A stretch of 30,240 nt of DNA from Bacteriovoracaceae bacterium (GTDB lineage Bacteria > Bdellovibrionota > Bacteriovoracia > Bacteriovoracales > Bacteriovoracaceae). The translations under genes and the position numbers were made by a program. Within the stretch, counting starts at the first letter, position 1; every line of letters starts with the position of its first letter. The stretch covers positions 1 to 30,240 of the forward strand of contig JBFGZE010000033.1 of NCBI GenBank assembly GCA_041586955.1, read 5' to 3'. Shown here in pieces: positions 3,001 through 24,108 of this stretch. Below the pieces are notes generated by a model. The model did no database searches, had not been told where the DNA came from, and saw only the letters and a list, made by a program, of their open reading frames with translations.

Positions 3001-3484
3001 AGACTACGCCGAATATTTTGAGGCCCAAGAAAAAATGCGACCCGGCGATGTCGTAGGGCTTGATCCTCAAAGTGGTAAGGCCAAACTCTATCAACCGGGT
3101 GATCAATTATTAGGAATTATTTCCACGGCACCAGGAATTGTAGGGAATTCCACCTTAAATAATGATAATGCCGTCCTTGTGGCGCTCTTAGGCCAGGTAC
3201 CAGTTAACTCAGAACAAATTCAGATGGACAATGGACTTGTTAAAACCCTGGATCAAAAGGTAATAGGTTTTCAACTGGCCTCTGGTGATGTTTATTTAAA
3301 TATTAGCACCAGCTCAGAGAGCTTGATCAAAGAAATTTCTCATCTAAAGCAGAAGGCCTTAAAACAATCAGAGCTGATAGGCCAACAAGAAAAAGAAATG
3401 GCCAGACTTGAACACCGACTAAAGGAACAGGAAAAAAAGTTCTCCGATGAAATTCACAAAATCAAATCTATCCTAGGTTTATAA
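2..3484 (+). CDS. Giant mosaic fibre/adhesin protein (phage tail-fibre-like) with C-terminal Peptidase_G2-like intramolecular chaperone and coiled coil; 5'-truncated by the window edge
   Basis: The frame is open from nt 2 (RIQNGGAVSLFNDLADVDTVSSTPTDGQMLIF...), so GTG59 is probably not the real start. G/S/T/N-rich, with many GN(V/I/F)GIG(T/V/I) repeats and four C-x6-C motifs. C-terminal GADYAEYF...PGDVV...LGIISTAPG...VALLGQVPV followed by a K/E/Q heptad coil. Confidence 0.8.
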   Translation, partial: RIQNGGAVSLFNDLADVDTVSSTPTDGQMLIFKTGSGNWEPSGAITTNTANNNVTFSNDVIISGTGLSVNGTDVCLSDGSNCPAFSTGINNGAGDITLNASTGSDDILLQIGSTTQAKVDDSGNFGIGATNATPATALHVKKDDANLITIDRTDNASISNKFQIGSADNGSADILTIGSDTTANSLSIDENGNVGIGTNSPSHLFTIEKNQPAVTSGMIKNTNASGRALLEFENDLGQGFVGMAGSTDTLNSSRFQNRLVLSSNAVAFSAGTENFIWFNKGYSSSGYESMRLERAAGDGDSRLGIGTGYNATDSGDFNNYIPPYNLTLGAYSNTNRSIGVERQVHPSIFGGRSLTINAGGAADGESDINGGDLILASGTATGTGTSGIQFQTATAQGATNTTDNAPTTKMTITGAGKIGLGITTPDASTIFHSQNDGKGYIRSDVYREHVYGGGLDIRHARGTIAAPIKLNQNDMMSVLYARGYDGSTFIEGSYIASVVDNVPSAGSLAGRLDFATRQAGWGFSDVKMTIKSEGNIGIGTQTPDVRTVITKGALCVSSDANCDGNNDNEGEIHAEKICDETGTNCQDISAGWGGTGDLMSDGTITMTAPLKHADGTAALPSLTFGTDLDTGIFSDAGDELNFSTNGVERMTISSNGTLGLGAPSPTYSLDILQDNYQQIRSIRDNSTGTAVWSNDLYSTTSFGPTFQTQLARGSIASPLAITTGTHFLQLVGKGHDGTAFQQSAQIYMTSSENWTSGATGSKLGFYTTANGSSSPSENLTILDNGNVGIGVTTPTEELDVAGDIKATTVTTSNNIYASATVYGQAGIRDLSDNGTGFLFPVNGQVSIDISGSEALRIDPSRNVGIGISAPEENLHIQGDGTTGINDIMILGTLGNSGNGRGTGLLFKTPGAASSVKGARIAAEGDGGVALSFHTSPDYLDTDPTEKVRISSSGDMGIGTTSPGSKLHVDGGGICVTDDNSCDVLPGAGGISSKTAAVTGADYAEYFEAQEKMRPGDVVGLDPQSGKAKLYQPGDQLLGIISTAPGIVGNSTLNNDNAVLVALLGQVPVNSEQIQMDNGLVKTLDQKVIGFQLASGDVYLNISTSSESLIKEISHLKQKALKQSELIGQQEKEMARLEHRLKEQEKKFSDEIHKIKSILGL

Positions 3485-4667: not shown

Positions 4668-6455
4668 TTAAGCATTTGTGCTCGTTCCAATCTTTTTCAT
4701 ACGATTTTCCAAATCAGCGCCTGTACGCAAGATCAGGTGAATCGGACAATTGGCCAATTCAAAATGCCGGCGGATACCGTTTTTTAAATAACGCTTATAA
4801 TGGTCTGGAATCCCCTTTGAACGATTGGAAAAAAGAAGAAAGGTTGGTGGCCCAGATTTAATCATGGATGCATACTTCACTTTAAATCTTTTACTCCCAC
4901 CGCCTTTAGCGACAATAGGATTGCGGTCAATCATTTCATATATGAGGCGATTAACTTCACCTGTTGGAAGAGCGCGCTTACGTGAGAGAAGTGTTCTTTT
5001 AATCGACTCTCTTAAAGGTTTAAGCCCTTTCCCCATTTTAGCGCTGATCGGAATAATATCGCAATAATCTAACCAAGGAATATCTCGCCTTAAATCATCA
5101 ACCCATTTTTTTCTTTCTTTATCATTTTTAAAGTCTTTATTTTTTAAGTCCATTTTGTTGAGAACAAGAATGACTGACTTCCCTTTCTCAAGCGCAATAT
5201 CCACCAGACGGCGGTCTTGATGGCCAATACCTTTCGTCGCATCTGCCAAAAGCAGAACCACGTCAGATTCAGTAATACAACGCAAAGAGCGGTAAACCGA
5301 ATGGGTTTCAATAAAATCCTTGGTTGAACTTTTACGGCGAATCCCGGCCGTGTCGATGAAGTGTAATGAGCGCCAATAATTACCGGCGGACTTTTCCTCT
5401 TCGTTAGGAGCTGTTGCTATCGTCTCCTGGTCGTCATCATTTTCATCATTATCCAGAGAAAAGGCCTGTTCCATTAGACGATTATCATTTGTCTGTTGAT
5501 CATCTTCAAGGCCTGCCCCTGCATCATGCTCATCAATTTCCCAGTCCAAATCCTCTTGTGCATCACCAAGAAATTCTTGCTGATTTCGCATTTCATTAAA
5601 GAGATCGGGATTATTTTTTCGGAAATCATCATATTGTTGGAATAAAATTTGATCATGCCGGTAGGATTGACCCTTGGCCTTTTCAAAAATTTCAGAATCA
5701 GGTCCGAAATAAAAATCAACATAGCCTTCTATCGGATCAACAGTGGTACCAGCAATATTACTAACGAGCGCTCGCTCCGCTCCCAACAATTCATTGAGAA
5801 GAGTTGACTTCCCAGCATTAGGAGCACCAATCAAGGCCAACTTACCAACAACATCACTGCGTGGAGTGACGCCTTTAGAAAGCCCAGGTCCGGCCTCATT
5901 GCGGTTATTAAAGGCCAGGATTTCTCGATGCAATTCTTCTCTTAAAGTGGTGATCCCCACACCATGAGCAGCAGAGGTTAAAAACATCTGATTCTCATTA
6001 ATACCGAGACCCCAAAACTCAGCTTCATCCCCTCTTTGTTTTTCGGTATCAAATTTATTGACCACCACCCAAAAAGGCTTTTTGGCAGACCTGAGATACT
6101 CCATTATGGAATAATCAAATGGCAAAATCCCTTCACGAACATCAACGGTGAAAAGTACTAAGTCACTTTCGGCGATTGCCATATGGGCATGGCCAATCAT
6201 TTCATTGAAAAAGCTTTTCCCCTGATCCTCGACTTTTTGCGGGTAAAAGCCTCCGGTATCCACTAGGATACAGCTCGTAACAGGCTCATTGGCCAATTCA
6301 TCAATTTTGGCCAGGCCATAATGACGATCACGAGTGACGCCAGGAACATTATGAGTCAAGGCCTTATTTTGTTTTCTCATTAAGCAATTAAATACTGAAC
6401 TTTTCCCAACATTGGGTCGACCAATGAGAGAAATGACCATATGTCTATTGACCAT
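4668..6455 (-). CDS. der: Ribosome biogenesis double GTPase Der (EngA) with a large acidic insertion in GD2
   Basis: GD1: GRPNVGKSS, GVTRD, DTGG, NKFD. GD2: GAPNAGKST, GTTVD, DTAG, NKMD. KH-like C-terminus PPTFLLF...Y.RYL.N.IR..F...PI.L. Start moved to ATG6455 (MVNRH), preceded by AAAAGGGGGGA and just downstream of the era stop. Confidence 0.95.
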   Translation of the reverse strand: MVNRHMVISLIGRPNVGKSSVFNCLMRKQNKALTHNVPGVTRDRHYGLAKIDELANEPVTSCILVDTGGFYPQKVEDQGKSFFNEMIGHAHMAIAESDLVLFTVDVREGILPFDYSIMEYLRSAKKPFWVVVNKFDTEKQRGDEAEFWGLGINENQMFLTSAAHGVGITTLREELHREILAFNNRNEAGPGLSKGVTPRSDVVGKLALIGAPNAGKSTLLNELLGAERALVSNIAGTTVDPIEGYVDFYFGPDSEIFEKAKGQSYRHDQILFQQYDDFRKNNPDLFNEMRNQQEFLGDAQEDLDWEIDEHDAGAGLEDDQQTNDNRLMEQAFSLDNDENDDDQETIATAPNEEEKSAGNYWRSLHFIDTAGIRRKSSTKDFIETHSVYRSLRCITESDVVLLLADATKGIGHQDRRLVDIALEKGKSVILVLNKMDLKNKDFKNDKERKKWVDDLRRDIPWLDYCDIIPISAKMGKGLKPLRESIKRTLLSRKRALPTGEVNRLIYEMIDRNPIVAKGGGSKRFKVKYASMIKSGPPTFLLFSNRSKGIPDHYKRYLKNGIRRHFELANCPIHLILRTGADLENRMKKIGTSTNA

Positions 6456-6468
6456 CTGGTCCCCCCTT

Positions 6469-7440
6469 TTATCGTGAACGCCAAACACGATTCGAATTTG
6501 TCGCTCGTGGTAGGCCTATTTCTTCTAATACAAAATTATTCTTAAACCATTTAGGAGAAACTTTAACGTGCAAATTCAAATGCACATCGCGTCCCACTAA
6601 GGCCTCAATCTTACGGCGAGACCGTGTTCCTATTTCTTTAATCATGGAACCTTTAGATCCAACCACGATGGCCCGTTGACTAGGACGGTTGACCAAGATA
6701 GAAGCAGATATTTTTGAACAATATTCGCCTTCTTTTTTTGGATTTTCGCTATCGGTAAACTCTTCAAGAACAACAGCAATCTCATAAGGTATTTCATCTT
6801 TTAATAATTCAAAGGCCTGTTCACGTATATATTCTGTGGCAAAAAAACGCTCACTCTTATTAGAAATTTCGCCATTAGGGTAACGATGCCTTTTATTTGG
6901 GGCCTCATCACAAAGAGCACCCGTCAGCTCATGGACTAAGTCACCTGTCTTTGATGACACCACAAAGTAACGCTCAATTGAAGGAAAAATCTCCTTTGCC
7001 GTAACCATCACTTCATCTAAAGGTAAGTCGACAGCATTTTCCACCATATCAGATTTAGAAAAGACCAACCACGTTTTCGACAATTCACCTTCAAACTGCT
7101 CTTTAAAGTTCATTAATTGAGGAACAATATCACGCGCTAAATTGATTAATAATAAATTTAAATCCGCGCCGACAGCTCCTTCTCGTGCTTGTTCGTTAAG
7201 ACGCTTGTTAAATTCTTGATTCGAGCGATGAAGCCCTGGAGTATCAACGAGAATAATTTCGGTGCGATCAATACTCAAAACGCAATGGATCTTATTACGT
7301 GTGGTTTGTGGCCGATGGGTCACAACAGTTAGATCTGTTCCCAAAAGATAATTCACAAGAGAGCTTTTTCCCACATTGGGTGCACCTAACACAGAAACGG
7401 TAATGGAGCGATTATGTGGGTGTTGGTCTTCAATTAACAT
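6469..7440 (-). CDS. era: GTPase Era
   Basis: GAPNVGKSS, PQTTRN, DTPG, SKSD (G4 variant), EIPYEIAV, KH domain IVVGSKGSMIKEIG, LHVKV..KW; located between rnc and der. Confidence 0.95.
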   Translation of the reverse strand: MLIEDQHPHNRSITVSVLGAPNVGKSSLVNYLLGTDLTVVTHRPQTTRNKIHCVLSIDRTEIILVDTPGLHRSNQEFNKRLNEQAREGAVGADLNLLLINLARDIVPQLMNFKEQFEGELSKTWLVFSKSDMVENAVDLPLDEVMVTAKEIFPSIERYFVVSSKTGDLVHELTGALCDEAPNKRHRYPNGEISNKSERFFATEYIREQAFELLKDEIPYEIAVVLEEFTDSENPKKEGEYCSKISASILVNRPSQRAIVVGSKGSMIKEIGTRSRRKIEALVGRDVHLNLHVKVSPKWFKNNFVLEEIGLPRATNSNRVWRSR

Positions 7441-7492: not shown

Positions 7493-8314
7493 TTATTTGT
7501 AATCTATCTTTAATTCTTTAACGGCGTTGCTTGCCAATTCTTTTTGTAGGCCCTTTTTAGAATTCCCCTCTAGGCTATTGCTATAATCAGGGCCCACTTT
7601 GAGGGTCACTTTAAAGTGACCTTGGTCGATTTCCTGACATTCATAAATCGGCATACTTTTAAATTGACTGACGCACCATTCTTGCAAACGGCCTTTTTGG
7701 TCAACGGTTTGCAAATGGGAAAGGGAATAAAAAGAAGATCCTGAATATTCCTCATAAAGATGGATAGAGCGCTTGATAAATTTTCCTGCGAGCTCAGCAC
7801 TACCTTCCAATAAAAGGGCGCCTAATAAGGCTTCGTAGGTATCACTAATCAATGAATCCCATTTTGAGGAATCCAACTGAAGCACGCCCTTACCCACCAG
7901 GATAAGCTCATCTAGGTGACATAATCGCCCTAATAAGGAGAGCATTTGAGAATTAACCAAGGCCGAGCGTAAACGGCTTAACTCCCCTTCTGGTAAAGTA
8001 GGAAATTGCTGAAAAAGTACTTGGGAGATGTGTAATTGTAAAATGGAATCACCTAAAAACTCAAGGCGTTCGTTAGAGGCAAGGCCCAAATTTGGAGCTT
8101 CGTGTAAGGCCGATCGATGAGAAAAGACCATTAATAGCAATTCGGGATCTTTAAAGGTATAGTTTAGCAGAGAATTAAACGGACTTTTTTCGATCACTTG
8201 AAGGAAATCCTGGATAAGCTCTTCCCTATTGGAAGTCTTATACCACTTCATCAATGCCCAAGATATATTATCCTCTTGGGAAGTCTTCAAGGTCGTCTGG
8301 TCCATATCACTCAC
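7493..8314 (-). CDS. rnc: Ribonuclease III
   Basis: Signature NERLEFLGDSIL, EGELSRLRSALV, SDTYEALLGA, C-terminal dsRBD (KGRLQEW...P.Y...G.SKK); upstream of era. Start is GTG8314 or ATG8305. Confidence 0.93.
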   Translation of the reverse strand: MSDMDQTTLKTSQEDNISWALMKWYKTSNREELIQDFLQVIEKSPFNSLLNYTFKDPELLLMVFSHRSALHEAPNLGLASNERLEFLGDSILQLHISQVLFQQFPTLPEGELSRLRSALVNSQMLSLLGRLCHLDELILVGKGVLQLDSSKWDSLISDTYEALLGALLLEGSAELAGKFIKRSIHLYEEYSGSSFYSLSHLQTVDQKGRLQEWCVSQFKSMPIYECQEIDQGHFKVTLKVGPDYSNSLEGNSKKGLQKELASNAVKELKIDYK

Positions 8315-8403
8315 TACTATTCAAATGTTGGGCAAAAACTAACAGAAAACCTCGCCCAATGCAAGACAGGTGGCCAGGCCGTGAAAAAAAAGGGGATCTT
8401 TGT

Positions 8404-9351
8404 ATGACTATTAGACAGGAAGGCGAACAGGCACTCCTTCGTTGGGAAAAACAATTCATTGACCGCCTGAAGGCCCGAGGCCTTAGCCTCAATACCGTCA
8501 AGAACTACCAAACGGACCTAAGCTGCTTTAAACAATTCTTATTGAGTGAGCAAGATCACTTAGATATGAGTGATTTCGGCACCCCGCAGATTAAGATCTA
8601 TGGTGAATACCTGGATAACCGCTATAAATCAGATAACTCCCGTCGCCGTCGGGTGCAAACCCTGCGCTTGTTTTTTGACTTCTTGGTGGAAGAACAGGCA
8701 TTTAGCAAAAATCCTGTGAGGGAGATCCCCACTAGTCCTAAATTCCTCGACGTTCCTAGGCCCACTCCTTTTGGCGACCTGAGAGTGGCGTGGAATTTCT
8801 TTAATAAACAGGTAGCAGAGGAAACAGGTCTTGCCCAACTCATTGCCCGCCGCAATCAAGTTATTTTCATTCTTATTTATGGTAGTGGACTCAAAGTCTC
8901 TGATCTCGCCAAGTTGAAGGCCGAGCATATTTTCTTTAACCGGGAAAATCGTGTTATGGTTGCCCCTAATAAAAAAGACCCCTATACCATTCCTCTTCTT
9001 CCGGGCTTTGATGATGTCTACCTGCCCTACCGGGAGGCCTTAGACAAACAAAAACTAAGAGACAAAGTGGAGTTTGATTCACCCTTCTTCAATGCCAACC
9101 CCTACCGGATTCTTTCAGGAGGACTCTCCCCTCGTGGCCTAGAGTTGGTTTTTGAGGATTATCGTAAACAATTAAATATCCAATTGACCCCAAAATCTCT
9201 CCGCCAGGCCTGCATTTTCCGTTGGCTCCACGAAAATAATCCCGATGGGCTAATTCGAGAGTGGCTTGGGGTTTCTCCGAGCTATGATCTTGGTCTTTAT
9301 AAAAAACACCAAAACCTGTTCATCTATAAGGGAGATTTACGAGAAAACTAA
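8404..9351 (+). CDS. XerC/XerD-like tyrosine recombinase family protein with degenerate catalytic residues
   Basis: N-terminal SAM-like domain (GLSLNTVKNYQTDL...LRLFFDFL...NP). Catalytic-domain boxes LIYGSGLKVSDL, LTPKSLRQ and IREWLGV...LY. Start moved to ATG8404 after AAGGGGA; the 8254 start would overlap rnc. Confidence 0.8.
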   Translation: MTIRQEGEQALLRWEKQFIDRLKARGLSLNTVKNYQTDLSCFKQFLLSEQDHLDMSDFGTPQIKIYGEYLDNRYKSDNSRRRRVQTLRLFFDFLVEEQAFSKNPVREIPTSPKFLDVPRPTPFGDLRVAWNFFNKQVAEETGLAQLIARRNQVIFILIYGSGLKVSDLAKLKAEHIFFNRENRVMVAPNKKDPYTIPLLPGFDDVYLPYREALDKQKLRDKVEFDSPFFNANPYRILSGGLSPRGLELVFEDYRKQLNIQLTPKSLRQACIFRWLHENNPDGLIREWLGVSPSYDLGLYKKHQNLFIYKGDLREN

Positions 9352-13561: not shown

Positions 13562-14206
13562 ATGGAATTTTTTATCGATACAGGAATTGTTGACGAAATT
13601 AAACAATCATTAAAATGGGGAATTGTTGATGGCGTCACCACCAACCCTTCACTTATTGCCAAGTCCGGCCGGACTCAAGAAGAGGTCATTAAAGAGATTG
13701 CTGGCCTCATTAACGGCCCAATCTCTGCGGAAGTGATCGCCCTAGAGCAAGAAGGTATGCTCAGTGAAGCTCATACTCTCGCTAAGATCCACGATAATAT
13801 TGTGATCAAATTACCACTGACTGAAGCGGGCATTGGGACCTGTAAAATCTTAAGTAGTGAAGGTATCAAAACTAACGTGACCTTATGTTTTTCCTCCAAC
13901 CAAGCTCTTCTCGCCGCTAAAGCTGGCGCGACTTATATTTCCCCGTTCATTGGCCGTCTCGATGATATCGGTCATGACGGTATGCAGTTAATTGAGGAAA
14001 TTAGAATAGTATATGATAATTATGGTTATATGACCAAGATTCTTGCTGCCTCTATTCGCCATGCTCAACATGTTCGCGATGCGGCCCTCGTTGGTGCCGA
14101 TGTGGGAACTATGCCTTATAAGGTGATTGAATCACTTTTCAAGCACCCTTTGACAAGTAAAGGCCTTGACCAATTTATGGCAGATCATAAAAAGGCCAAT
14201 GCCTAA
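13562..14206 (+). CDS. tal: Transaldolase (small FSA/TalC-like subfamily)
   Basis: [27 protein letters not shown] (Glu), Schiff-base [22 protein letters not shown] (Phe). The Glu/Phe pair marks transaldolase rather than FSA (Gln/Tyr). Confidence 0.88.
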
Positions 14207-14256
14207 GCGCCTGACAGCTCATCAATTTTAAAAAATGACCGATAAGCCCTCTAGCA

Positions 14257-15117
14257 ATGGAGGGTTTTTTGCATTACCTAATCATTTTAATCAGTCTCAT
14301 TATTTGCTCCTGCGGACCCATGCAAGAGGAAGAAGTTCGCAAAAAGGGTATTAATATCCCCTTTGAGTTAATGGACGACTTTAAAGCGCGTTGGCCGGCA
14401 TCGATTCAATCGACACCACTCAACCTCTTAGTGCACCCAAGCTTTACTGCCCTATTTCCGAAATCAGAAATTTTAAATCCAGTCCAACAATGGAATAAAA
14501 AACTGCCGGCCCTGACCTTTATCTCTGAAACACTCGCTAGTTCAGGCCTCAATCTTAATAGAGGGCTTGACCAATTTTATGATGGAGAAATGGGCGTTTA
14601 TTATATGAACTCTTGGTATGATGATTTGTCCCCTGATGCTCTGGCGATCACTCAATATTATGGCCTGCCTCGTTTTAGTAGCGACCTTGGCCAGTACATT
14701 GAATTAGTCCACGCCGATATTATTATTAACGGCCGGGATCATACCTATAGCAATGATCCTAATGATATGATTAATTACGATATCCAATCTGTTCTAGTCC
14801 ATGAATTAGGTCATTTTATTGGTCTTGGTCACGTCTATGATTTTTCAACAGATTCAGTGATGTTTCCCTTTTTAGGGACTGATGAGACAATTCGAGTTTT
14901 AGGCAATGACGATTTTGATTTATTAAATGAACTTTATGGTGGATATAAGAGTTTAGCACTGAGGCCAAAAAGTGGTATTCCGTCTTTATCAGGGCGGGTC
15001 GTTGACCCTACACAATTAACTAGAGGGATTATCCAATTGAAAAAAGATGGCCATTGCGAGCATTATCGGGATGGCCTTTTAATTCATGGCCACAAAGTTA
15101 ATTTAAACCGTCTTTAA
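14257..15117 (+). CDS. Matrixin-family (M10) zinc metalloprotease lipoprotein
   Basis: Lipobox-like IICSC after a hydrophobic stretch; ADIIIN; HELGHFIGLGH zinc motif; Met-turn SVMFP. Confidence 0.85.
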   Translation: MEGFLHYLIILISLIICSCGPMQEEEVRKKGINIPFELMDDFKARWPASIQSTPLNLLVHPSFTALFPKSEILNPVQQWNKKLPALTFISETLASSGLNLNRGLDQFYDGEMGVYYMNSWYDDLSPDALAITQYYGLPRFSSDLGQYIELVHADIIINGRDHTYSNDPNDMINYDIQSVLVHELGHFIGLGHVYDFSTDSVMFPFLGTDETIRVLGNDDFDLLNELYGGYKSLALRPKSGIPSLSGRVVDPTQLTRGIIQLKKDGHCEHYRDGLLIHGHKVNLNRL

Positions 15118-15364
15118 ACTTCTTAAGAATTTCCTTTTCTAATAATTCGACTTGCTGTGGATCGACCTGAGATTTTTTTTCAAGGTTTGCTTTCATATGC
15201 AGACGGATTAATCGCATTTGTTGATGATAGGCCTTACAGGCCTTACAAATCACAAGATGAAGCGCCAAACGCCAACTATCAAGTTGATTGAGATTTTCCT
15301 CACTGCATGATAATTCAGTAATACGCTTACATGATAATATTATTAAGTTCATCCAATTCTTCAA
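15098..15364 (-). CDS. zf-HC2 (ZAS) zinc-finger anti-sigma factor
   Basis: LSCKRITEL...LALHLVICKACKAY (HxxxCxxC); the start overlaps the sigma stop codon; no TM segment. Confidence 0.85.
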   Translation of the reverse strand: MKNWMNLIILSCKRITELSCSEENLNQLDSWRLALHLVICKACKAYHQQMRLIRLHMKANLEKKSQVDPQQVELLEKEILKKFKDGLN

Positions 15365-15954
15365 AGATCCCCCTGACGATATTGGCCTTCAACACATTCA
15401 CGGACACGATTTTTTCCTCTAAATATAAGTTGCCTCAAATTAGCAGACGTGACACCTAAAATGTCACAAATTTGATTGGGCCCTTCTCCGTGGACTAATT
15501 TTAAGCTTAGCGCCATTCGCTGATTAGGAGGTAGCTTTTCGGTACACTTCTCTATTATTTCAAATAGTTCCTTTTGCTCAGATAAATCACGAGGGTCCAT
15601 TTCATCTCTGCGCCAATGGCCATTTTGATCGAAACGACTTTCCACCACTTCATCAATAGGATCCATTTTTTCGAATTGTCTGTCTTTGCGCCAACCTTCG
15701 CTCACTTTATTGTAAAAAATGCCAAACAGGAATGTGCGGATATGACTACGTCCCTCAAAACGCTTAACCACTTCAAAAAAGGTGACCCATGTATTTTGGA
15801 CCACTTCCTCGGCCTTTACCGAGTCAAGTCCCTGGCCATAGGCCGCCCGCAATAATTGGCCGGTATAGGCGTGCACCACTTGCGAAATGGCCTGGTGCCC
15901 ATTATTTTTTAAGCGATCTATAAACTCTGGACTCGAAAAATTCTCTTTCGTCAT
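15361..15954 (-). CDS. ECF RNA polymerase sigma factor
   Basis: Region 2 AEEVVQNTW...FEGRSHIRTFLFGIFYNK; region 4 LPPNQRMAL...ICDILGVTSANLRQLIFRGK. Start moved to ATG15954 (MTKEN); the 15999 start would collide with the divergent gene's upstream region. Confidence 0.9.
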   Translation of the reverse strand: MTKENFSSPEFIDRLKNNGHQAISQVVHAYTGQLLRAAYGQGLDSVKAEEVVQNTWVTFFEVVKRFEGRSHIRTFLFGIFYNKVSEGWRKDRQFEKMDPIDEVVESRFDQNGHWRRDEMDPRDLSEQKELFEIIEKCTEKLPPNQRMALSLKLVHGEGPNQICDILGVTSANLRQLIFRGKNRVRECVEGQYRQGDL

Positions 15955-16006
15955 GGCCTTATTTTTTCCTTGTAGTGGCATTTTGTAAACGGGTATCATG
16001 ATTTTT

Positions 16007-16033
16007 TGTCACAATATTTATAATGCTGACACC
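16007..16033 (+). promoter_or_regulatory. Candidate ECF-type promoter/operator upstream of the arsM-like gene
   Basis: TGTCACA (16007-16013), 16 nt, then CACC. The same stretch forms the inverted repeat TGTCA-N15-TGACA and contains TATAAT (16019-16024). Confidence 0.3.
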
Positions 16034-16057
16034 CATAGATTAAAGAGGAGAAACTTA

Positions 16058-17125
16058 GTGAGCGGTAAAAAAGGGCTTCACCAAGAGGTGCAAGATTATT
16101 ACGGAAAAACTTTACAAACGTCGACTGATTTAAAAACCAACGCTTGTTGCACTGTTCAGTCATTTCCCGACCATATAAAAAAGGCGATGGCCCAGATCCA
16201 TGACGAAGTTCATAGTAAATATTATGGCTGTGGCCTGGCGATCCCTGAAAATCTGGACGGACTCGCCGTTTTAGACCTGGGTTCGGGCTCTGGCCGTGAT
16301 GCCTATATCCTCTCTAAATTAGTCGGAGAAAAAGGCAAAGTGGTTGGCGTAGATATGACCCCCGAACAATTGGACGTCGCTCGCCGCCACCAAGATTATC
16401 ACGCAACAACCTTTGGGCATGGAGAGAGCAATACCGAGTTCATTCATGGCCATATCGAACACCTCGACCAATGTGGCCTAAAGGACGAGTCCTTTGATGT
16501 CGCCGTTTCAAATTGTGTTATCAATTTGGCCAAAGATAAAGAAGCTGTTTTAAGAGAAACTTATCGTGTCCTCAAAGAAGGCGGAGAGTTATATTTCAGT
16601 GATGTCTATGCTGACCGACGCATCCCCAAGCATTTAATCGACGACCCAGTTCTCTACGGTGAATGCCTCAGTGGCGCACTTTATTGGAATGATTTTTTAA
16701 CATTGGCAAAAAAGGTTGGTTTTATCGATCCACGCACAATTAAGTCCATTCCCATCACCATCGAAAATAAAGAAATAGAAAAAAAGGTGGGCAGTATTAA
16801 GTTTTATTCCGTCACCTACCGCCTTTATAAAATAAATTCCCTAGAGTCTGATTGTGAAGACTACGGGCAAGCAGTGGCATACAAGGGCACTTTAAAAGAA
16901 TGCCCTAATGCCTTTGAGTTAGATGATCACCACCTTTTTGAAAAGGGCAAAGTTATATCAGTCTGTGGCAATACCTTTGATATGTTGGCGGCCACTCGCT
17001 TTAAAAATCACTTTACCTTTTACGGTGACCAGGAAACCCATTACGGTATTTTTGAAGGCTGTGGTGGTGCTGCCCCATTTAATACTGGAAATACCTCCAC
17101 CCCGGAGACAGGAGCTTGCTGCTAA
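16058..17125 (+). CDS. arsM: Arsenite S-adenosylmethionine methyltransferase (ArsM/AS3MT-like, long Cys-rich form)
   Basis: RBS GAGGAG then GTG16058. VQDYYGK, TNACC, YYGCG, SAM motif VLDLGSGSGRD, GVDMTPEQL, SNCVINL, YGECLSGALYW; Cys-rich tail CEDYGQ...VCGNT...GCG...ACC. Confidence 0.85.
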   Translation: MSGKKGLHQEVQDYYGKTLQTSTDLKTNACCTVQSFPDHIKKAMAQIHDEVHSKYYGCGLAIPENLDGLAVLDLGSGSGRDAYILSKLVGEKGKVVGVDMTPEQLDVARRHQDYHATTFGHGESNTEFIHGHIEHLDQCGLKDESFDVAVSNCVINLAKDKEAVLRETYRVLKEGGELYFSDVYADRRIPKHLIDDPVLYGECLSGALYWNDFLTLAKKVGFIDPRTIKSIPITIENKEIEKKVGSIKFYSVTYRLYKINSLESDCEDYGQAVAYKGTLKECPNAFELDDHHLFEKGKVISVCGNTFDMLAATRFKNHFTFYGDQETHYGIFEGCGGAAPFNTGNTSTPETGACC

Positions 17126-17883
17126 TGAAAATCCTATTCCTTATTCTTACCTTTTGGATGACTTCCCTTTGGGCCTTTGATCACACTCATCAAAGCTATC
17201 ATCAAATTCTTCAAAAACACGTCGTTGTTGATGGCCCCCAAACCTATGTCAACTATAAAAGTCTGAATAAGGAATCCCAGACCTTTGACCAATATTTATT
17301 ATCTTTGTCCCAGGTAAGCGCTAATGAGTACCAAAAATTTTCTAAGGACGATAAATTAGCGTTTCTCATCAATGCCTATAATGCTTTTACTATTAAACTC
17401 ATACTCAATAATTACCCTGTCAAAAGTATTAAAGATATTGGTCACCTCTTTAAAAATAGCTGGAAAATTAAGTTTTTCACCCTCCTCGGGGAACAAAGAA
17501 ACTTAGACAATATTGAACATGACATGATCCGCAAAAACTTTAAGGAACCACGAATTCATTTTGCGGTGGTATGCGCGAGTATCGGTTGTCCTCCACTTAT
17601 GCCGCGGGCCTATCGGGGCAAAACTCTCGAACACCAATTAACACAAGCTGCAAAAAACTTTTTATTAGACTCTAAGAAGAACCGCCTCGATGTACAGAAA
17701 AAAACTTTGTATTTAAGTAAAATCTTTAAATGGTATGGTGGGGATTTCATCAAAAAATTTGGCAGTGTTGAAAATTATATTGCAGGAATCATGAGTGATG
17801 ATCCAAAAGTCAGCGCCATGATTAAAGACAAAAAATTCGAGGTTATATATAATCATTATGATTGGAACCTTAATGAACGATAA
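17125..17883 (+). CDS. DUF547 family exported protein
   Basis: TAATG coupling to arsM; signal peptide MKILFLILTFWMTSLWA; LAFLINAYNAFTI, LDNIEH..IR, EPRIHFAVVCASIGCPPL, LSKIFKWY..DF, YDWNLN. Confidence 0.9.
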   Translation: MKILFLILTFWMTSLWAFDHTHQSYHQILQKHVVVDGPQTYVNYKSLNKESQTFDQYLLSLSQVSANEYQKFSKDDKLAFLINAYNAFTIKLILNNYPVKSIKDIGHLFKNSWKIKFFTLLGEQRNLDNIEHDMIRKNFKEPRIHFAVVCASIGCPPLMPRAYRGKTLEHQLTQAAKNFLLDSKKNRLDVQKKTLYLSKIFKWYGGDFIKKFGSVENYIAGIMSDDPKVSAMIKDKKFEVIYNHYDWNLNER

Positions 17884-18799
17884 TAAATTTACCAACCCAT
17901 TAATAACAGCAAAAGGTGAGCAACGTGCCTTCGTACCTTTTGATGGCTATCAAACCCTATGGTTTAATACGGGAACCCAGTGTAATCTTTCTTGTCAGCA
18001 CTGCTATATCGAATCATCACCCACAAATGATCGCCTTCAATATTTAACGATAGAAGATGTCTTACCTTTTCTCAAAGAATTAAAAAATGAAGAGAGCAAT
18101 TGTCAAAAAATAGGTTTTACCGGGGGAGAGCCATTTCTAAACCCCCAAATGATTCCCATTCTTCATGCCTGCTTAGAGCAGGGTTTTCATTGCCTGGTGC
18201 TGACCAATGCTCACCGAGTGATTAAACGGGTCCACGATGATATCTTACGACTCGACCGAGACTTCCCAGGGCAATTAAAACTAAGGGTATCTCTTGATCA
18301 CTATACCCAAGAATTACATGAAAAAGAACGAGGTGCAGGAACTTTTAAAAGTACCTTGAAGGCCACAAAGCTATTATTTGACCAGGGAATCTCACTATCG
18401 ATTGCGGGGCGTTCCTTAAAAGAGGAAAGTCTCCAAATTGAACAACAAAAATATCATCAACTACTCCTTGAACATGATATTCAACTCCCAATGGATAATG
18501 ACCATTTAGTGATCTTTCCAGAAATGGATTTAAAAAAAGAAGTCCCAGAAATTAGTGTCGATTGCTGGGATATTCTTGGCAAAACACCACAGATGCAGAT
18601 GTGTGCCCATGAGCGGATGATAGTCGTCCCCAAAGAAAGCGGTCAAGCGCAAGTTCAGGCCTGTACTCTTTTGGCCTATGACCCCCAATTCAACATGGGA
18701 CAAACATTAGAAGAGGCCAAACAACAAGTTTTCCTCAACCATCAATTCTGTGCCCAGTTCTGTGTTTTAGGTGGCGCAAGCTGTTCCCAAGCGGGGTAA
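17873..18799 (+). CDS. Radical SAM protein with Cys-rich C-terminus (not canonical ArsS)
   Basis: TLWFNTGTQCNLSCQHCYIESSP (CxxxCxxC), FTGGEPF, VLTN, RVSLD; C-terminal CW...MC...ACTLL...FCAQFCVLGGASC. ATG17873 overlaps the DUF547 3' end by 11 nt. Confidence 0.88.
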   Translation: MNDNKFTNPLITAKGEQRAFVPFDGYQTLWFNTGTQCNLSCQHCYIESSPTNDRLQYLTIEDVLPFLKELKNEESNCQKIGFTGGEPFLNPQMIPILHACLEQGFHCLVLTNAHRVIKRVHDDILRLDRDFPGQLKLRVSLDHYTQELHEKERGAGTFKSTLKATKLLFDQGISLSIAGRSLKEESLQIEQQKYHQLLLEHDIQLPMDNDHLVIFPEMDLKKEVPEISVDCWDILGKTPQMQMCAHERMIVVPKESGQAQVQACTLLAYDPQFNMGQTLEEAKQQVFLNHQFCAQFCVLGGASCSQAG

Positions 18800-18943
18800 T
18801 TATTTTTATACGTCCTATTATCTTGTCAAAAAACATTCTTTTTTTAACTAAGACACAAAGGGATTTATCTACTTCATTCATTGCCGAGGTATTTTTCGAC
18901 AATTTAGTTTAAAAAGCTAAACTTCCCCTACTTCTACCCTCAA

Positions 18944-18972
18944 AATGGCGACTTAAATAATAAGTCGCCATT
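18944..18972 (-). terminator. Intrinsic terminator downstream of the malectin-domain gene (possibly bidirectional)
   Basis: Perfect 12-bp stem AATGGCGACTTA-AATAA-TAAGTCGCCATT, 15 nt past the stop at 18988; T-run on the minus strand. Confidence 0.8.
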
Positions 18973-18987
18973 CGAATTTAAATTTAA

Positions 18988-21249
18988 TTAATTTGCCATT
19001 CTATAGATCGAGAAATCAGCTACCCCCGTGGGGCCCCAGCCTGGCTCTTTAGGAAACTTAAGGATACGCATATGTTCCCATGGGATCCCCTTGAGATAAT
19101 TCAAAGAGCTTGGAAACATCTCTGCTGGATATGGATCTGTTGGCCAACTTTGAGGATTTATAGCGTAAAGCGAAACAGCTCCACTATAGTCACCAACATA
19201 GGCACCGTATTGTTGTAATGCCTTAGCGATGATACGCTCATAAGAAGTCATATTAAACTTACTCAAGTCTAAGTTTGGATCGAGCTGTAAGTGAGCTCCC
19301 TCTGGGATCGCTCCAGGTGTCGTGACCCATCCATCACTGGCCGTCGCAGGAGGAACAAACCCACCAGCGGCAGCTATCGGTAATGCCATAAAAAGAGCAT
19401 GGTCAATACGGCCTTGCTTAAACTCTTCTGGCCAAATGATTCCTGCCATTGCGGCAAACCCTGATGCTTTAGCACCGGATCCGGTAGGAAATATACCATT
19501 ACTATCTAAGGCAATACGGTTCCCCCAAGAAGTACTCCAAGAACCATCGGCATGTTTTTTGGCCTGCCAAAAATCATACTCATAACCTGTTGAGATATCC
19601 ATAATCACCATATGCCCATCCCTCTGCGGATCTGGCTTAGCATTACTAGGGATAGGAACATTGACCATCGCTTGAAAACCGTACTTCGTATTAGAACCAG
19701 TAATCGCGACATCATAGCGAGGTGTTTTTGCATCTGCAACATACACAGGGACTGACCATGTACGCATGTTTAATATCGGATCATAAGTTTCGCGCGTGGC
19801 CTTAACTAATGCCTGAACCATCGCGCCAGAGTCTGGATCGATTGCGGGATTTGCTGGAATGGGTGTGTTCCAAACACTATCTTTTGAATACAACGGTAAA
19901 GGTAGATATGGAGGTAACAGGGCCCCGGACTGAGTTGGAGCAGATAAAGTCTTAACTGTTATTGTACTCGATAGACCTGACTCATTTGATTTATTATCCA
20001 ATGCTCTAACCGCATATGTATAAGTGGTAGAAGCACGAAGGCCGGTGTCTGTATATGTCGTCGCTGTACTTGTTGCCAAATACGACCCATCTCTATAAAC
20101 CTTATAGCCTAATATACCATCACTATCACTGGATGCACTAAAAGAAAGCATAACAGAACTGTAAGTAATATTTGATGAAACTAGGTTTTGTGGGACGGTA
20201 GGCGCCACTTCAGGTGCTGGGGCCGGTGATTCCGTCGTCACACTAGGATCTAGAGGAGTCTCTGACGTCTTATGGATCTCAATTGCATTAATGATAGGAT
20301 TATCAAGACCTCCGATAAAATCGATGTTAAGTGTACTGTCATTTACTGAAACTTCACTTATGGTTTTAATGATAGCTTTGTATAATCCACCTGCCTCACT
20401 AAATACATCAATGTTTGAAAGAGACTTATTTTCAACATTAACACCAAAAACTCTTTTGCCAGCAAAATAATATTGATTAGTCTCAGCAAAGTGTAGTTTT
20501 ACGGTATATGTTCCATTTTCAACAGGAACTTTATACTGAGACGGCCCCCACCTTTCTGTTTGGTATAAGCGATCACTATTCGTATTTTCAATTGCAACAG
20601 AAGCCCCTCTATCAACAATGTCACCTCCAGAAACATAACGATCAGATTGCCAAACAACTCCTGCAGCATCTGTATATGAATTCATACTACCCGATTGAAT
20701 GAAAATTGAAGAAAGGTAGCCATTATCAGATGGTGCTGGTTCTGGTTCTGGTGCTGGTGCAGGTACCTCTGTTGATTCTTGTGTTTGAAATGAAAGATTC
20801 AGATAATCAAAAATGATATTACTGGCATTTCTCCTCGAATAAACTTGGAGCCTTAACGTTCCCTTAGAACTTAAATAGTCATTGAGAGGCCCGGCCAGTT
20901 TAAATTGAGCATCGTGAAATTTACCACTAGAAAAAGCTCTTAAGTCTGCAACCGCTTCCCAAGAACGTCCTTTACGAACTTTAATTCTATAAGAGTTTTG
21001 ATCTAATACTTTAAACTTAATATTGACGATTGGCACTCTCAAGTCTTTATTAGACTGGAAGTAAAAATCAATTACGCCAACGCCTTTTCTTTTGGTCGTA
21101 TGCAGGGTCAAATATTTGGCGTCGTCTTTAGCTAAAAGGTCTGCGACACTGCCATCAATGTGTCCACTCCGGACGACAGAGTGACTGGGACTCAATGCAT
21201 ACAGACTAGATGAAAGAAATGCTAGTAGTAAATAAAGTATGGTTTTCAC
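18988..21249 (-). CDS. Secreted multidomain protein: N-terminal beta domain, malectin, FN3, C-terminal domain of unknown function
   Basis: RBS GGGAG + GTG; signal peptide; PAPEP linkers. Malectin (LYQTERWG..Y.VPVENGTYTVKLHFAE...RVF.V.VE...IDVF.EAGG...INAIEI, ~20272-20710). FN3 (PTVPQNL...GYKVYRDG...YTDTGL...YTYAVRALD, ~19948-20204). C-terminal ~300-aa domain (DGHMVIMD...EYDFWQ...AGII...IDHAL...SDG...ALQQYG). Confidence 0.85.
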   Translation of the reverse strand: MKTILYLLLAFLSSSLYALSPSHSVVRSGHIDGSVADLLAKDDAKYLTLHTTKRKGVGVIDFYFQSNKDLRVPIVNIKFKVLDQNSYRIKVRKGRSWEAVADLRAFSSGKFHDAQFKLAGPLNDYLSSKGTLRLQVYSRRNASNIIFDYLNLSFQTQESTEVPAPAPEPEPAPSDNGYLSSIFIQSGSMNSYTDAAGVVWQSDRYVSGGDIVDRGASVAIENTNSDRLYQTERWGPSQYKVPVENGTYTVKLHFAETNQYYFAGKRVFGVNVENKSLSNIDVFSEAGGLYKAIIKTISEVSVNDSTLNIDFIGGLDNPIINAIEIHKTSETPLDPSVTTESPAPAPEVAPTVPQNLVSSNITYSSVMLSFSASSDSDGILGYKVYRDGSYLATSTATTYTDTGLRASTTYTYAVRALDNKSNESGLSSTITVKTLSAPTQSGALLPPYLPLPLYSKDSVWNTPIPANPAIDPDSGAMVQALVKATRETYDPILNMRTWSVPVYVADAKTPRYDVAITGSNTKYGFQAMVNVPIPSNAKPDPQRDGHMVIMDISTGYEYDFWQAKKHADGSWSTSWGNRIALDSNGIFPTGSGAKASGFAAMAGIIWPEEFKQGRIDHALFMALPIAAAGGFVPPATASDGWVTTPGAIPEGAHLQLDPNLDLSKFNMTSYERIIAKALQQYGAYVGDYSGAVSLYAINPQSWPTDPYPAEMFPSSLNYLKGIPWEHMRILKFPKEPGWGPTGVADFSIYRMAN
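20731..20764. repeat. Imperfect 6-nt tandem repeat encoding a Pro-Ala/Pro-Glu linker
   Basis: tggtgc tggttc tggttc tggtgc tggtgc aggt reads PAPAPEPEPAP on the minus strand. Confidence 0.6.
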
Positions 21250-21639
21250 CTTTGTACTCCCTATTAAATTTTGCTAAATGCTTATTAAGAACAATCTTTT
21301 TATTTTATTTAGTATAATGGCATGTACAATAGTGATCATACTCCTTTGAGCGGCGTTTTTTTATATTCCGCCATAATGACTTATAACCCCCTTATTTTAA
21401 ATGGGAAAATTCTTTTTTTTAAAGCGTTCCCTATTGAAAATTATCAATAAAAACTGCCATAACAATGAGGCATTCTTTAAATTATCAGGAACCTAGCGAG
21501 GAGTATTGATCTAATCCTATTAACCGATAACAATGATGGTAAAATACCACTTTTTCACTGCATAAACTGTACCATTGTTAGCAATAGCAGTGTGATTGAA
21601 GAAATCAAGAGCTGCCCCCTTTAAGTCACTAGGAGGGTA

Positions 21640-22065
21640 TTATAAAAAGGAGTCCACGATATTTAATAATAGGCCGTATCGAAATAATTTCCCAAAAAAC
21701 ATATAAAGAAAAATATAAGAGGCCCGTAACTGCAAAAGGCCACAAACCGCCGCAATGAATTCCCCCACAAATGGTAACCAACAAAAAAATGACAACCACT
21801 CCCCTCGCCCCGACAAACGCTTTTCCCATAGGTCCAACCGCTCCTGATCAAATCGTAAAAATTTAAGAGTAACCGCCCTGCCTTTGTATTTCGCCAACAA
21901 ATAACAAGTCATTCCACCTAAAGTATTACCAAGTGTCGCGATAACTAAAATCCAAGAGAGAGAATGCCCAACGGATTGCAGATATAATAAATAGGCCTCA
22001 GAACCTAAAGGAATAAAGGACCCCGCTAAAAAGGAAATTATCAATAAATTAACGAGTGCCAACAT
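21640..22065 (-). CDS. YqaA/DedA (VTT domain) membrane protein
   Basis: SFLAGSFIPLGSEAYL, ATLGNTLGGMTCY, WLPFVGE, GKLFRY: YqaA motif pattern. Overlaps the upstream gene by 17 nt. Confidence 0.85.
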   Translation of the reverse strand: MLALVNLLIISFLAGSFIPLGSEAYLLYLQSVGHSLSWILVIATLGNTLGGMTCYLLAKYKGRAVTLKFLRFDQERLDLWEKRLSGRGEWLSFFCWLPFVGEFIAAVCGLLQLRASYIFLYMFFGKLFRYGLLLNIVDSFL

Positions 22066-23335
22066 GACGTCTCAATTCCCATAAGAGCGGAAAAAACCAA
22101 AGGTGAGTCATTAACTCACCCAGGGGTAGCCAAACTTCATCAACACCATAAAAAGCGTAGGAAAAACAACTAAAGAATGCATATATAATAGGTAGGCGTA
22201 GACCTAAAAGTAAGGACGGTATTAGCATCCAAATACAATACCATGGATTATAAACTGGCGTAAAAAACAAAAGCCCAGCGAAAATGCCAACTGCCGCCTG
22301 CATAATTTGGCGATTGGTAATGATCCATTTTTGACGCCACACACACCGCAGGATCATGATAGCAAGCCAGATAAGATAAAGACCGTACCCATAAGTGGTT
22401 AGGACACGCGCCTGAGAGCTTGCAAGACCAAAAAGACGGTGTAGCAGTGAATAAAAACCGGGATTCCATACCCAATAAGAACTAAAGGCACGCATGCCAT
22501 GCCAATCTCCCTTAAATTGATGGGCCCAACTCCAAAGAAACGGTAAGCTCATAATAACGAGAAAGACAGCACCTCTATATCCCCAACGTTTTAGGCTTTT
22601 ATCACCTGGATGCCCCCGAAAGAATTGAAAAGGTAATAATGCCAACCCCAGAACTTTTAATTGGTAGCTTAGAAAAAGACTCAGCAAATTTTTAAAAGGT
22701 CCGCTATTTTGAAAATAGAAAATAAGGGGAATGGCAGCCACCAGATCAAGATGAACCGATTGAATAAATTCTTTCTGGAAAAATGGAAAAAGTAAAACCA
22801 AAGGCCATAACCGCCATTTGAAACGGGCCCCTTGCCGCCACAAAAACCACACAAGAAAACCATTGGCCAATTGCAATACTCGCAGGCCAAAGTCATATTT
22901 AAAAGCGCCCGCCAAATAAAACCAAACCAATGCTAAAGGGGGATAAATGCCGGGTAGATAAGGAAAACCTATATCTTTTCGATGAGTAAACTCTACCCCA
23001 TCTAATGCGACGGCCTCTGGTGGAGTTAGGTAGGGATTAAAACCCTTAAAAAAAACTTTCGACTCCCAAATATAACGATAATGATCGTTTTCAAAGAGAG
23101 GTTCGCCCAGTAGAATGATCACAAGACCTATACAGAAAACCCCCAGTGAAGGTACCGGAAGGATGGACTTTTTGGGGATAAAAATCCACACCGCAATGCC
23201 ATAAATCAGAGTCCAGGCGATATAAAAAGGACCTCCGGTATATTCCGGCCCAGGAGATTGAAAAATATGGGCCAAAACCGTAATTGCGATGCTATTAATT
23301 AGCCAAAAGAGATGAATTCGCCAACTTTCTTTCAT
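22049..23335 (-). CDS. Polytopic GT-C-fold (GT87/DUF2029-like) glycosyltransferase
   Basis: About 10 hydrophobic segments; first loop ENDHYRYIWESKV...GFNPYL.PP; IYPPLA; HLD; late YNPWY motif. This pattern is typical of polyprenyl-phosphosugar-dependent transferases. Confidence 0.7.
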   Translation of the reverse strand: MKESWRIHLFWLINSIAITVLAHIFQSPGPEYTGGPFYIAWTLIYGIAVWIFIPKKSILPVPSLGVFCIGLVIILLGEPLFENDHYRYIWESKVFFKGFNPYLTPPEAVALDGVEFTHRKDIGFPYLPGIYPPLALVWFYLAGAFKYDFGLRVLQLANGFLVWFLWRQGARFKWRLWPLVLLFPFFQKEFIQSVHLDLVAAIPLIFYFQNSGPFKNLLSLFLSYQLKVLGLALLPFQFFRGHPGDKSLKRWGYRGAVFLVIMSLPFLWSWAHQFKGDWHGMRAFSSYWVWNPGFYSLLHRLFGLASSQARVLTTYGYGLYLIWLAIMILRCVWRQKWIITNRQIMQAAVGIFAGLLFFTPVYNPWYCIWMLIPSLLLGLRLPIIYAFFSCFSYAFYGVDEVWLPLGELMTHLWFFPLLWELRRHVGTR

Positions 23336-23364
23336 ATTCTATAAGTTACTGCAAAGGAGAAAAT

Positions 23365-24108
23365 GTGTCTGGCCAAAAGGATACCATAGTCATTATTCCC
23401 GCTTTTAATGAAGAAAAGTCTATCGGTTTAGTGCTCGACCAAATCCCTAGGGAGCGGGTTGAAAAAATCATCGTCGTCAATAATAATTCTACCGACCAGA
23501 CGGAGTCCCAGGCCTTAGCACATGGAGCAGAAGTTATTTTTGAAGGAACTCCAGGCTATGGAAATGCCTGCTTAAAAGGTATTGCCCACCTCAAAGATAA
23601 ACCACCGAAAAATGTCGCATTTCTTGATGGTGATTTTTCTGATGACCCACGCGAATTATCGATACTACTCTTAGAGCTCGACCGAGGCCATGATTTGGTT
23701 ATTGGTTCGCGCAATAGAGGGAAGGCCCAAAAAGGTAGTTTATTACCGCAGGCCATTTTTGGCAATTGGTTAGCAACCTCATTACTGCGTCTTTTTTTTG
23801 GTGGCCACGCTTTTACCGATCTTGGACCTTTCCGTGTAATTCGCTACCAGGCCTTAATGGATATTAGAATGGAAGACCGTACTTTTGGCTGGACTGTAGA
23901 GATGCAGGCCAAGGCCTTGATCTATAGATTACGATGTTCAGAAATAGCAGTGAGTTATAAGCAGCGAATCGGTGTTTCCAAGATTACCGGAACGCTCAAA
24001 GGGACTATATTGGCCGGACATAAAATTATACAAACTTTATTTATACTCAAATTTAAGTGCCTAATCGGTATCATTCCCCAAAATCATTTGGGAAAAGCTC
24101 TCGACTAG
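23365..24108 (+). CDS. Glycosyltransferase family 2 (DPM1/polyprenol-phosphate glycosyltransferase-like)
   Basis: RBS AAGGAG + GTG; VIIPAFNEE, VVNNNSTD, GYGNAC, FLDGDFSD, DLVIGSR, FGNWLAT, FTDLGPFR, FGWTVEMQ, RIGVSKITGT. Confidence 0.9.
   Translation: MSGQKDTIVIIPAFNEEKSIGLVLDQIPRERVEKIIVVNNNSTDQTESQALAHGAEVIFEGTPGYGNACLKGIAHLKDKPPKNVAFLDGDFSDDPRELSILLLELDRGHDLVIGSRNRGKAQKGSLLPQAIFGNWLATSLLRLFFGGHAFTDLGPFRVIRYQALMDIRMEDRTFGWTVEMQAKALIYRLRCSEIAVSYKQRIGVSKITGTLKGTILAGHKIIQTLFILKFKCLIGIIPQNHLGKALD

Follow-up and report, generated by a model that had tools for sequence, protein, structure and literature searches.

A conserved, probable arsenosugar module of Bacteriovoracaceae in which an unannotated radical SAM enzyme is a candidate substitute for ArsS

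Contig JBFGZE010000033.1 of a Bacteriovoracaceae bacterium (assembly GCA_041586955.1) carries, within the 30,240-nt stretch analysed here (hereafter the window), a compact operon in which an arsenite methyltransferase gene (arsM, 16058-17125, + strand) is followed by genes for a DUF547 protein (17125-17883, +) and for a 308-aa radical S-adenosylmethionine (SAM) enzyme (17873-18799, +) that we consider a candidate substitute for the arsenosugar enzyme ArsS. The first-pass annotation of this DNA had described the three genes as translationally coupled and divergent from an extracytoplasmic function (ECF) sigma/anti-sigma pair, and the reading frames and junctions confirm it: arsM and the DUF547 gene meet in a TAATG at 17123-17127, and the radical SAM gene, opening with an ATG at 17873, shares its first 11 nt with the end of the DUF547 gene (stop codon 17881-17883). 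The start of arsM is probably the GTG at 16058, preceded by an AGAGGAG ribosome site; a longer alternative from the ATG at 15998 would overlap the ECF start. On the opposite strand, the ECF sigma factor gene (15361-15999, −; Pfam sigma70 r2/r4 and TIGR02937), whose true start may be the ATG at 15954, is coupled at its stop to a gene for an 88-aa zinc-binding anti-sigma-like protein with an HxxxCxxC motif (15098-15364, −), which is found with the ECF gene in related loci and scores 36.1 bits on NF052368, below the cut-off of 50. Scans of 29 window proteins covered Pfam and NCBIfam; DUF547 (PF04784, 94.9 bits, in a protein with a Cx4C motif and, read by eye, an apparent signal peptide), Radical_SAM and Glycos_transf_2 exceeded their Pfam cut-offs.

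The ArsM protein aligns along its whole length with arsenite methyltransferases of solved structure (PDB 5evj, E = 6e-116; 4kw7 and 4fr0, E = 7e-91), and its C30, C58, C153 and C203 align with C44, C72, C174 and C224 of 4kw7, four cysteines which we take to be catalytic. It falls below the cut-off of every NCBIfam ArsM model (174 against 263 for NF008823, 96.5 against 400 for NF038099 and 155 against 500 for NF040538), models that are built on other clades, and for this reason we place it in the algal/AS3MT-like clade and not in the modelled bacterial ones. Unlike the algal/eukaryote-type enzymes that it resembles from end to end, with all four cysteines kept, the window protein is bacterial and its gene shares an operon with one for a radical SAM enzyme. 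By homology, it would methylate As(III).

ArsS works together with ArsM (excerpted text of PMC8552651) and adenosylates dimethylarsenic(III), DMAs(III), to 5'-deoxy-5'-dimethylarsinoyladenosine, DDMAA (excerpted text of PMC13598754). The Synechocystis pair SsArsM and SsArsS, in which ArsS corresponds to TIGR04167 with a Radical_SAM and a DUF3641 domain, resembles the window operon in the coupling of arsM to a gene for a radical SAM protein of about 310 aa, in a CxxxCxxC motif and a C-terminal cysteine set that come in the same order, and in shared accessory families (DUF547, TIGR04282, TIGR04283, flavin reductase/TVP38 and nucleoside phosphorylase). The window locus differs in its arsM-DUF547-radical SAM order, its AS3MT-type ArsM and the divergence of its radical SAM protein.

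In the latter, the CxxxCxxC motif comprises C37, C41 and C44, and the C-terminal set C244, C264, C293, C297 and C304. A radical SAM family other than ArsS had been proposed for this gene and the scores bear this out: the protein reaches 68.6-68.7 bits on TIGR04167 against a cut-off of 300, whereas ArsS proteins of the same family, taken as positive controls, reach 431-453, and it has no DUF3641. Membership in ArsS was rejected on these grounds, and no ArsS above the TIGR04167 cut-off was found in the host genome. Distant homology is nevertheless apparent in profile-profile comparison, where a broader profile aligned locally with ArsS over 277 columns (probability 99.5, 23% identity) and narrow profiles over 146 columns limited to the core; a control SPASM enzyme gave 211 columns with a score of 91, as compared with 265 columns and a score of 138 for a single ArsS. 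C244, C264, C293 and C297 are invariant over 20 family members and three ArsS proteins, and C304 is nearly so. Judged by these alignments, the radical SAM enzyme is homologous to ArsS end to end, and the C-terminal cysteines are common to both.

The family to which this enzyme belongs carries no name and, by the same comparisons, is ArsS-like and distantly homologous to ArsS. It is large: at least 8000 sequence clusters and at least 575 confirmed GTDB matches belong to it, and 311 representatives were obtained at E 1e-30. Among named homologues, those nearest to the window protein are mostly from Bacteriovoracaceae (53-60% identity), and it is from these only that we infer a predatory lifestyle for the host. 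Matches in the ESM Atlas were all unnamed clusters of this radical SAM family, and no ArsS structure was found by sequence search. The two AlphaFold models in the ArsS comparison match the same PDB SPASM/twitch enzymes (BlsE, SkfB and SuiB); as predicted, both fall in one SPASM/twitch subgroup, and the structural match is not discriminating. Among the titles and abstract starts listed by the literature searches, none describes the family, a scope too narrow to establish absence from print. Cheng et al. 2021 reportedly includes a phylogenomic survey of ArsS homologues, in which the family may be mentioned.

Comparative genomics indicates that the two radical enzymes avoid each other. Among 161 genomes of the host's family, with ArsS counted above the TIGR04167 cut-off, the ArsS-like enzyme occurs in 65 and ArsS in 18, and a single genome has both, where about seven would be expected if the two were independent and kinship were ignored. 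That genome (G126) holds canonical ArsS in two copies alongside a single ArsS-like gene (L120, L126, L136). None of 60 other carriers of the ArsS-like enzyme, 50 GTDB-wide and 10 from the family, had ArsS above the cut-off. The same was seen in 201 genomes of a second phylum, that of a Balneola record: 21 have the ArsS-like enzyme, 68 have ArsS and none has both. Window-type ArsM, present in 55 of the 161 family genomes, is confined to those with either radical enzyme (55/82, against 0/79 of the genomes with neither). Moreover, canonical ArsS in the host family adjoins an ArsM and a DUF547 protein that are 57% and 47% identical, respectively, to those of the window. By the genomic tests run, the radical SAM enzyme probably behaves as a substitute for ArsS while standing outside the ArsS family.

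Gene neighbourhoods within about 10 kb were compared for 53 of the 65 family carriers (the window excluded), for 20 ArsS loci and for the best 80 GTDB loci, some of them on short contigs; these and the later counts were made by hand from tables. In the 53 family loci, ArsM lies near the radical SAM gene in 31, DUF547 in 22, an ECF gene in 12, a TIGR04283-like gene in 11, flavin reductase/TVP38 in four and a TIGR04282-like gene in two, and nine loci have none of these neighbours. The corresponding figures for the ArsS loci are 11 (ArsM), eight (DUF547) and two (ECF). Across the GTDB loci we found TIGR04283-like genes in 19, TIGR04282-like genes in 17, ArsM in 13 (12 of the window-type clade, one of them partial, and one bacterial-type), flavin reductase in 12 and DUF547 in four; 27 loci have at least one of ArsM, TIGR04282, TIGR04283 and DUF547. 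Adjacency of ArsM and radical SAM genes exceeds chance (31/53 family and 13/80 GTDB loci). Fusions of the two occur in both orders, one of them being a RefSeq protein of Deferribacter thermophilus, and a TIGR04282-radical SAM fusion, above the TIGR04282 cut-off (163.6 vs 134), is found on six contigs. The radical SAM family, whose co-localisation across genomes the first-pass annotation had left as a check, co-localises, co-occurs and fuses with ArsM and TIGR04282, which supports the earlier view of a locus that is biosynthetic, of arsenosugar type, rather than one of plain detoxification.

In many family genomes a conserved site upstream of the module is marked by fsa/transaldolase and matrixin genes (13562-15117 in the window), and at this site ECF, arsM and DUF547 are present or absent in a stepwise manner. 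Other partners of the radical SAM gene were also seen. An unnamed metallophosphoesterase, mostly alphaproteobacterial, lies directly 3' of it or is fused to it (L012:5991-7976; L064:10947-11825; P0203, P0204), and these loci are possibly a different branch of the pathway. One family member (P0210) is fused to an HD_3/5'-deoxynucleotidase-like domain. At another locus (L013:1164-3689) a phosphate-binding protein and ABC permeases directly follow arsM and an ArsS-like gene, a possible link to arsenate/phosphate uptake.

As reported earlier for this DNA, arsR, arsC, acr3 and arsB are absent from the matches listed for the 29 window proteins, and a classical ars resistance operon next to arsM, with arsR/arsC and acr3 or arsB, was rejected for that reason. 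The assembly, which is 88% complete, likewise yielded no acr3 and no arsB. Its other contigs gave two ArsC-family, two LMWP, one weak ArsR-type and one ArsP-family match. A resistance operon at the ArsP-family match, on contig C14, was rejected as well, the open reading frames examined there showing no arsR, acr3 or arsM; the LMWP protein looks like a tyrosine phosphatase by motif, read by eye. Also unlinked to the window, an MTAP gene scores above its cut-off on contig C6.

Control of arsM probably lies with the divergent ECF/anti-sigma pair. A 7-base motif some 45 nt before the gene (16007-16013, +) is a candidate ECF −35 element, found at the same position in 6/6 aligned ECF-arsM loci and absent from the one locus without arsM (seven-sequence alignment). 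The two-sequence promoter alignment is weak, and the motif alone is not rare, with three occurrences in the window vs 4.9 expected. Its reading as part of an ECF promoter, which it may be, is a lead suggested by known ECF promoter types.

We think it likely that the arsM-DUF547-radical SAM operon is an arsenosugar-initiation module in which ArsS has been replaced by a distantly homologous radical SAM family. ArsM, given its close homology to solved enzymes and its four conserved cysteines, would methylate As(III) to DMAs(III). The radical SAM enzyme would then cleave SAM and add the 5'-deoxyadenosyl radical to DMAs(III), yielding DDMAA as ArsS does; we ascribe this product to it because it appears interchangeable with ArsS. 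The adenosylation analogy is also drawn from the excerpted text of bioRxiv 10.1101/2022.09.23.509062. More speculatively, a nucleoside phosphorylase and TIGR04282-/TIGR04283-like proteins, encoded elsewhere in the genome, would strip off adenine and hand the arsenoribose on to an acceptor. A nearby pair of glycosyltransferases, a family 2 enzyme (GT2) and a GT87-like one, would make and use a lipid-phosphate sugar at the envelope as an optional add-on to both cluster types. A wider proposal, in which a second widespread radical SAM family forming carbon-arsenic (C–As) bonds is joined by the GT2/GT87-like pair, moving or further glycosylating arsenoribose on an envelope lipid or glycan to give an ECF-controlled arsenic-bearing surface molecule in predatory Bacteriovoracaceae, strikes us as unlikely.

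Several observations weigh against the replacement of ArsS. The window protein is only about 23% identical to ArsS, and DUF3641 (PF12345), which scores 189.8 bits in a control ArsS, found no match in it nor in 6/6 relatives at E 0.05. Of the named models, that of the Rv1681 family (NF049973) gives the window protein its highest score over the radical SAM core, 87.3 bits as against 68.7 for ArsS, and it also has the better best E-value across the family alignment; ArsS is therefore not established as the nearest family. Membership in the Rv1681 family was itself rejected, since 87.3 bits falls below the cut-off of 380 and the match is limited to residues 28-204; titles and abstract starts of the matching literature gave no function for it. 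In 53 of the 80 best GTDB loci, ArsM, TIGR04282, TIGR04283 and DUF547 are all missing within 10 kb, and nine of the 80 have the metallophosphoesterase partner instead, once fused. The radical SAM proteins fused to ArsM come from a subclade further removed (219 and 191 bits on the profile), and the 21 carriers of the second phylum look like one lineage, kin and not independent cases. Window-type ArsM is missing from 20 of the 65 family carriers of the ArsS-like enzyme, as it is from seven of the 18 ArsS genomes, and at E 1e-20 no ArsM match was found for 30 of 50 distant carriers; carriers of this kind would need external DMAs(III), another methyltransferase or another substrate. Finally, the TIGR04282-like (87 vs 134) and TIGR04283-like (90 vs 182) genes of the host are unlinked and below their cut-offs.

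Some of these points could signal instead that the same arsenic module performs another chemistry, be it adenosylation of monomethylarsenic(III), MAs(III), an ArsL-like aminocarboxypropyl transfer or a later step. A C-terminal domain too divergent for a DUF3641 match and the pairing with an AS3MT-type, not NF038099-type, ArsM speak for it, and ArsL is a precedent for a non-canonical CxxxCxxC arsenic enzyme (excerpted text of bioRxiv 10.1101/2024.02.01.577332). That the enzyme and ArsS almost completely exclude one another and share their partner genes nevertheless suggests the same step, and we find another chemistry rather unlikely. Like the window operon, the ArsL/ArsM arsinothricin pathway (arsQML) combines an ArsM with a CxxxCxxC radical SAM enzyme that forms C–As bonds, but no arsQ was seen here and the neighbours are of arsenosugar type. 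Membership in ArsL was rejected: neither the best 25 of 55 matching families nor the 20 families of a further scan include an ArsL model, and the window protein has 308 aa against 428 for ArsL (excerpted text of PMC8552651). The ArsM-less distant carriers would also fit a main substrate that contains no arsenic (e.g., a methylated sulfur, selenium, antimony or phosphorus compound), with the ArsM link secondary in some lineages, as would the best score of the Rv1681 family and the metallophosphoesterase, HD nucleotidase-like domain, MTAP and Cys/Met pyridoxal-phosphate enzyme that are frequent neighbours or fusion partners. Yet the window methyltransferase keeps the four ArsM cysteines, window-type ArsM never occurs in the host family without one of the two radical enzymes and ArsS itself dispenses with that ArsM in the genomes counted above, all of which makes a substrate of this sort decidedly improbable. 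That ArsM is a stand-alone detoxifying enzyme, with the radical SAM, DUF547 and glycosyltransferase genes as neighbours by descent only, is suggested by the many family loci that share a single ancestral site next to fsa and matrixin, and such an ArsM could be the main defence of a host in whose assembly acr3 and arsB were not found. Against this, the genes are found side by side again in other orders and in other phyla, gene fusions exist and none of the 79 genomes without a radical partner keeps window-type ArsM; we regard descent alone as highly improbable. Replacement of ArsS within an arsenosugar-initiation module is the reading that we retain.

The glycosyltransferases call for a separate judgement. 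The GT87-like (GT-C) membrane protein of 428 aa (22049-23335, −) has no Pfam or NCBIfam match of its own and is tentatively assigned to GT-C through its homologues, most of the close ones having PF26314 and the distant ones PF09594 (GT87). The source records of several name them alpha-1,6-mannosyltransferase, and D84, R87 and W90 of the DxxRYxW motif are invariant. Its partner, a GT2 of the AglJ/polyprenyl-phosphate-sugar synthase type (23365-24108, +), is divergent from it and is below the cut-offs of TIGR04182 (96 vs 325) and TIGR04283 (26.5 vs 182), by the latter of which it was rejected as a TIGR04283 arsenosugar glycosyltransferase. It is 44% identical to a GT2 that is fused to a GT87-like domain (16-member cluster). 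The DxxRYxW motif, the membrane protein, the GT2 partner and the natural fusion recall systems that combine a GT87/MptA-MptB-type GT-C with an AglJ/Dol-P-sugar-synthase-type GT2, from which the window differs in that the likeness of its 428-aa protein is known from homologues and not from a direct Pfam match.

The GT87-like gene occurs in 26 of the 161 family genomes, and 24 of the 26 have a radical enzyme, vs a baseline of 51%; in 13, from nine genera, it lies within 10 kb of either radical enzyme. In the second phylum it is present in 56 of 201 genomes, 31 of them with ArsS (three within 11 kb and seven within 35 kb). At the three closest of these loci, chosen for their closeness, GT2 and GT87-like genes sit inside canonical ArsS clusters; the two GT2s compared from such clusters are 50-51% identical to that of the window, and in one cluster GT2, GT87 and TIGR04283 genes stand in one row. 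Between the GT87-like gene and canonical ArsS at one locus, there is also a 197-aa gene without an NCBIfam match (L204:9133-9726). The GT2/GT87-like pair is thus a recurring optional companion of ArsS and ArsS-like clusters, not unique to this variant. Its inclusion in the arsenic system, as first proposed, holds in so far as the pair recurs by the module and in ArsS clusters, and fails for the many genomes where one is found without the other: only 24 of the 82 family genomes with either radical enzyme have the GT87-like gene, 25 of its 56 second-phylum carriers have neither enzyme and none of the 21 ArsS-like carriers there has it. These counts speak for an independent envelope-glycosylation module that adds an ordinary hexose to lipid or protein, often beside arsenosugar clusters and handling no arsenic, as does the GT2, which is of the type that joins an NDP (nucleoside diphosphate)-sugar to polyprenyl phosphate; since arsenic occupies C5' of DDMAA, an AglJ-type GT2 would be unlikely to use it as an ordinary NDP-sugar donor. 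The enrichment and proximity in the family, the one canonical cluster with all three genes in a row and a GT87-like homologue fused to a TIGR04283 domain above its cut-off (a single sequence) point the other way. On balance we lean towards the independent module, in which the pair would more plausibly add a normal sugar at the envelope, and consider it doubtful that it transfers arsenic or touches the arsenic product.

Two further genes lie between the operon and the GT2, a malectin/Fn3 secreted protein (18988-21249, −) and a YqaA/DedA (VTT)-like membrane protein (21640-22065, −; PF09335, 33.1 vs 33.9, below cut-off) that overlaps the GT87-like gene. The YqaA, GT-C and GT2 genes listed in the first-pass annotation are all present, but they are co-directional neither with each other nor with arsM: the GT2 is on the + strand and the other two on the − strand, and the trio is therefore not one transcript. 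YqaA as a member of the unit was not borne out, as a YqaA-like gene occurs in 0/53 family loci and 0/20 ArsS loci, and the protein has no significant match to a TVP38 protein from a cluster. Among the loci scanned, only the window has the malectin/Fn3 gene at this place, and relatives have the GT87-like gene abutting the radical SAM gene. Both YqaA and malectin genes were rejected as parts of the system, being local insertions. Partial copies of the malectin/Fn3 gene, 92-96% identical, are found on contigs C51, C42 and C68, and it looks like a recently multiplied secreted-protein module interrupting the cluster.

Elsewhere in the window, a 1141-aa protein (59-3484) has a C-terminal Peptidase_G2 autoproteolytic domain as its sole match and may be tail-fibre- or adhesin-like. 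The Der/EngA GTPase (4668-6488), at 606 aa, is much longer than its 432-position model, as a long insertion between the GTPase domains would explain. A Xer-like tyrosine recombinase (8254-9351) stands beside rnc-era-der, an arrangement shared with two of the other loci (L005 and L089).

We see in the locus a real and conserved variation on the ArsM/ArsS arsenosugar module, with an unannotated enzyme as the probable substitute. If the enzyme does replace ArsS, surveys that look for ArsS overlook a large part of the potential arsenosugar makers, the ArsS-like enzyme being 3.6 times commoner than ArsS in the host family (65 vs 18 of 161 genomes). Many carriers are heterotrophs with marine or aquatic named relatives, which bears on the origin of environmental arsenosugars and arsenolipids. 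The cluster offers candidate genes for later steps of the pathway and, should the substitution hold, many more microbes than current gene labels show may make organic arsenic compounds.

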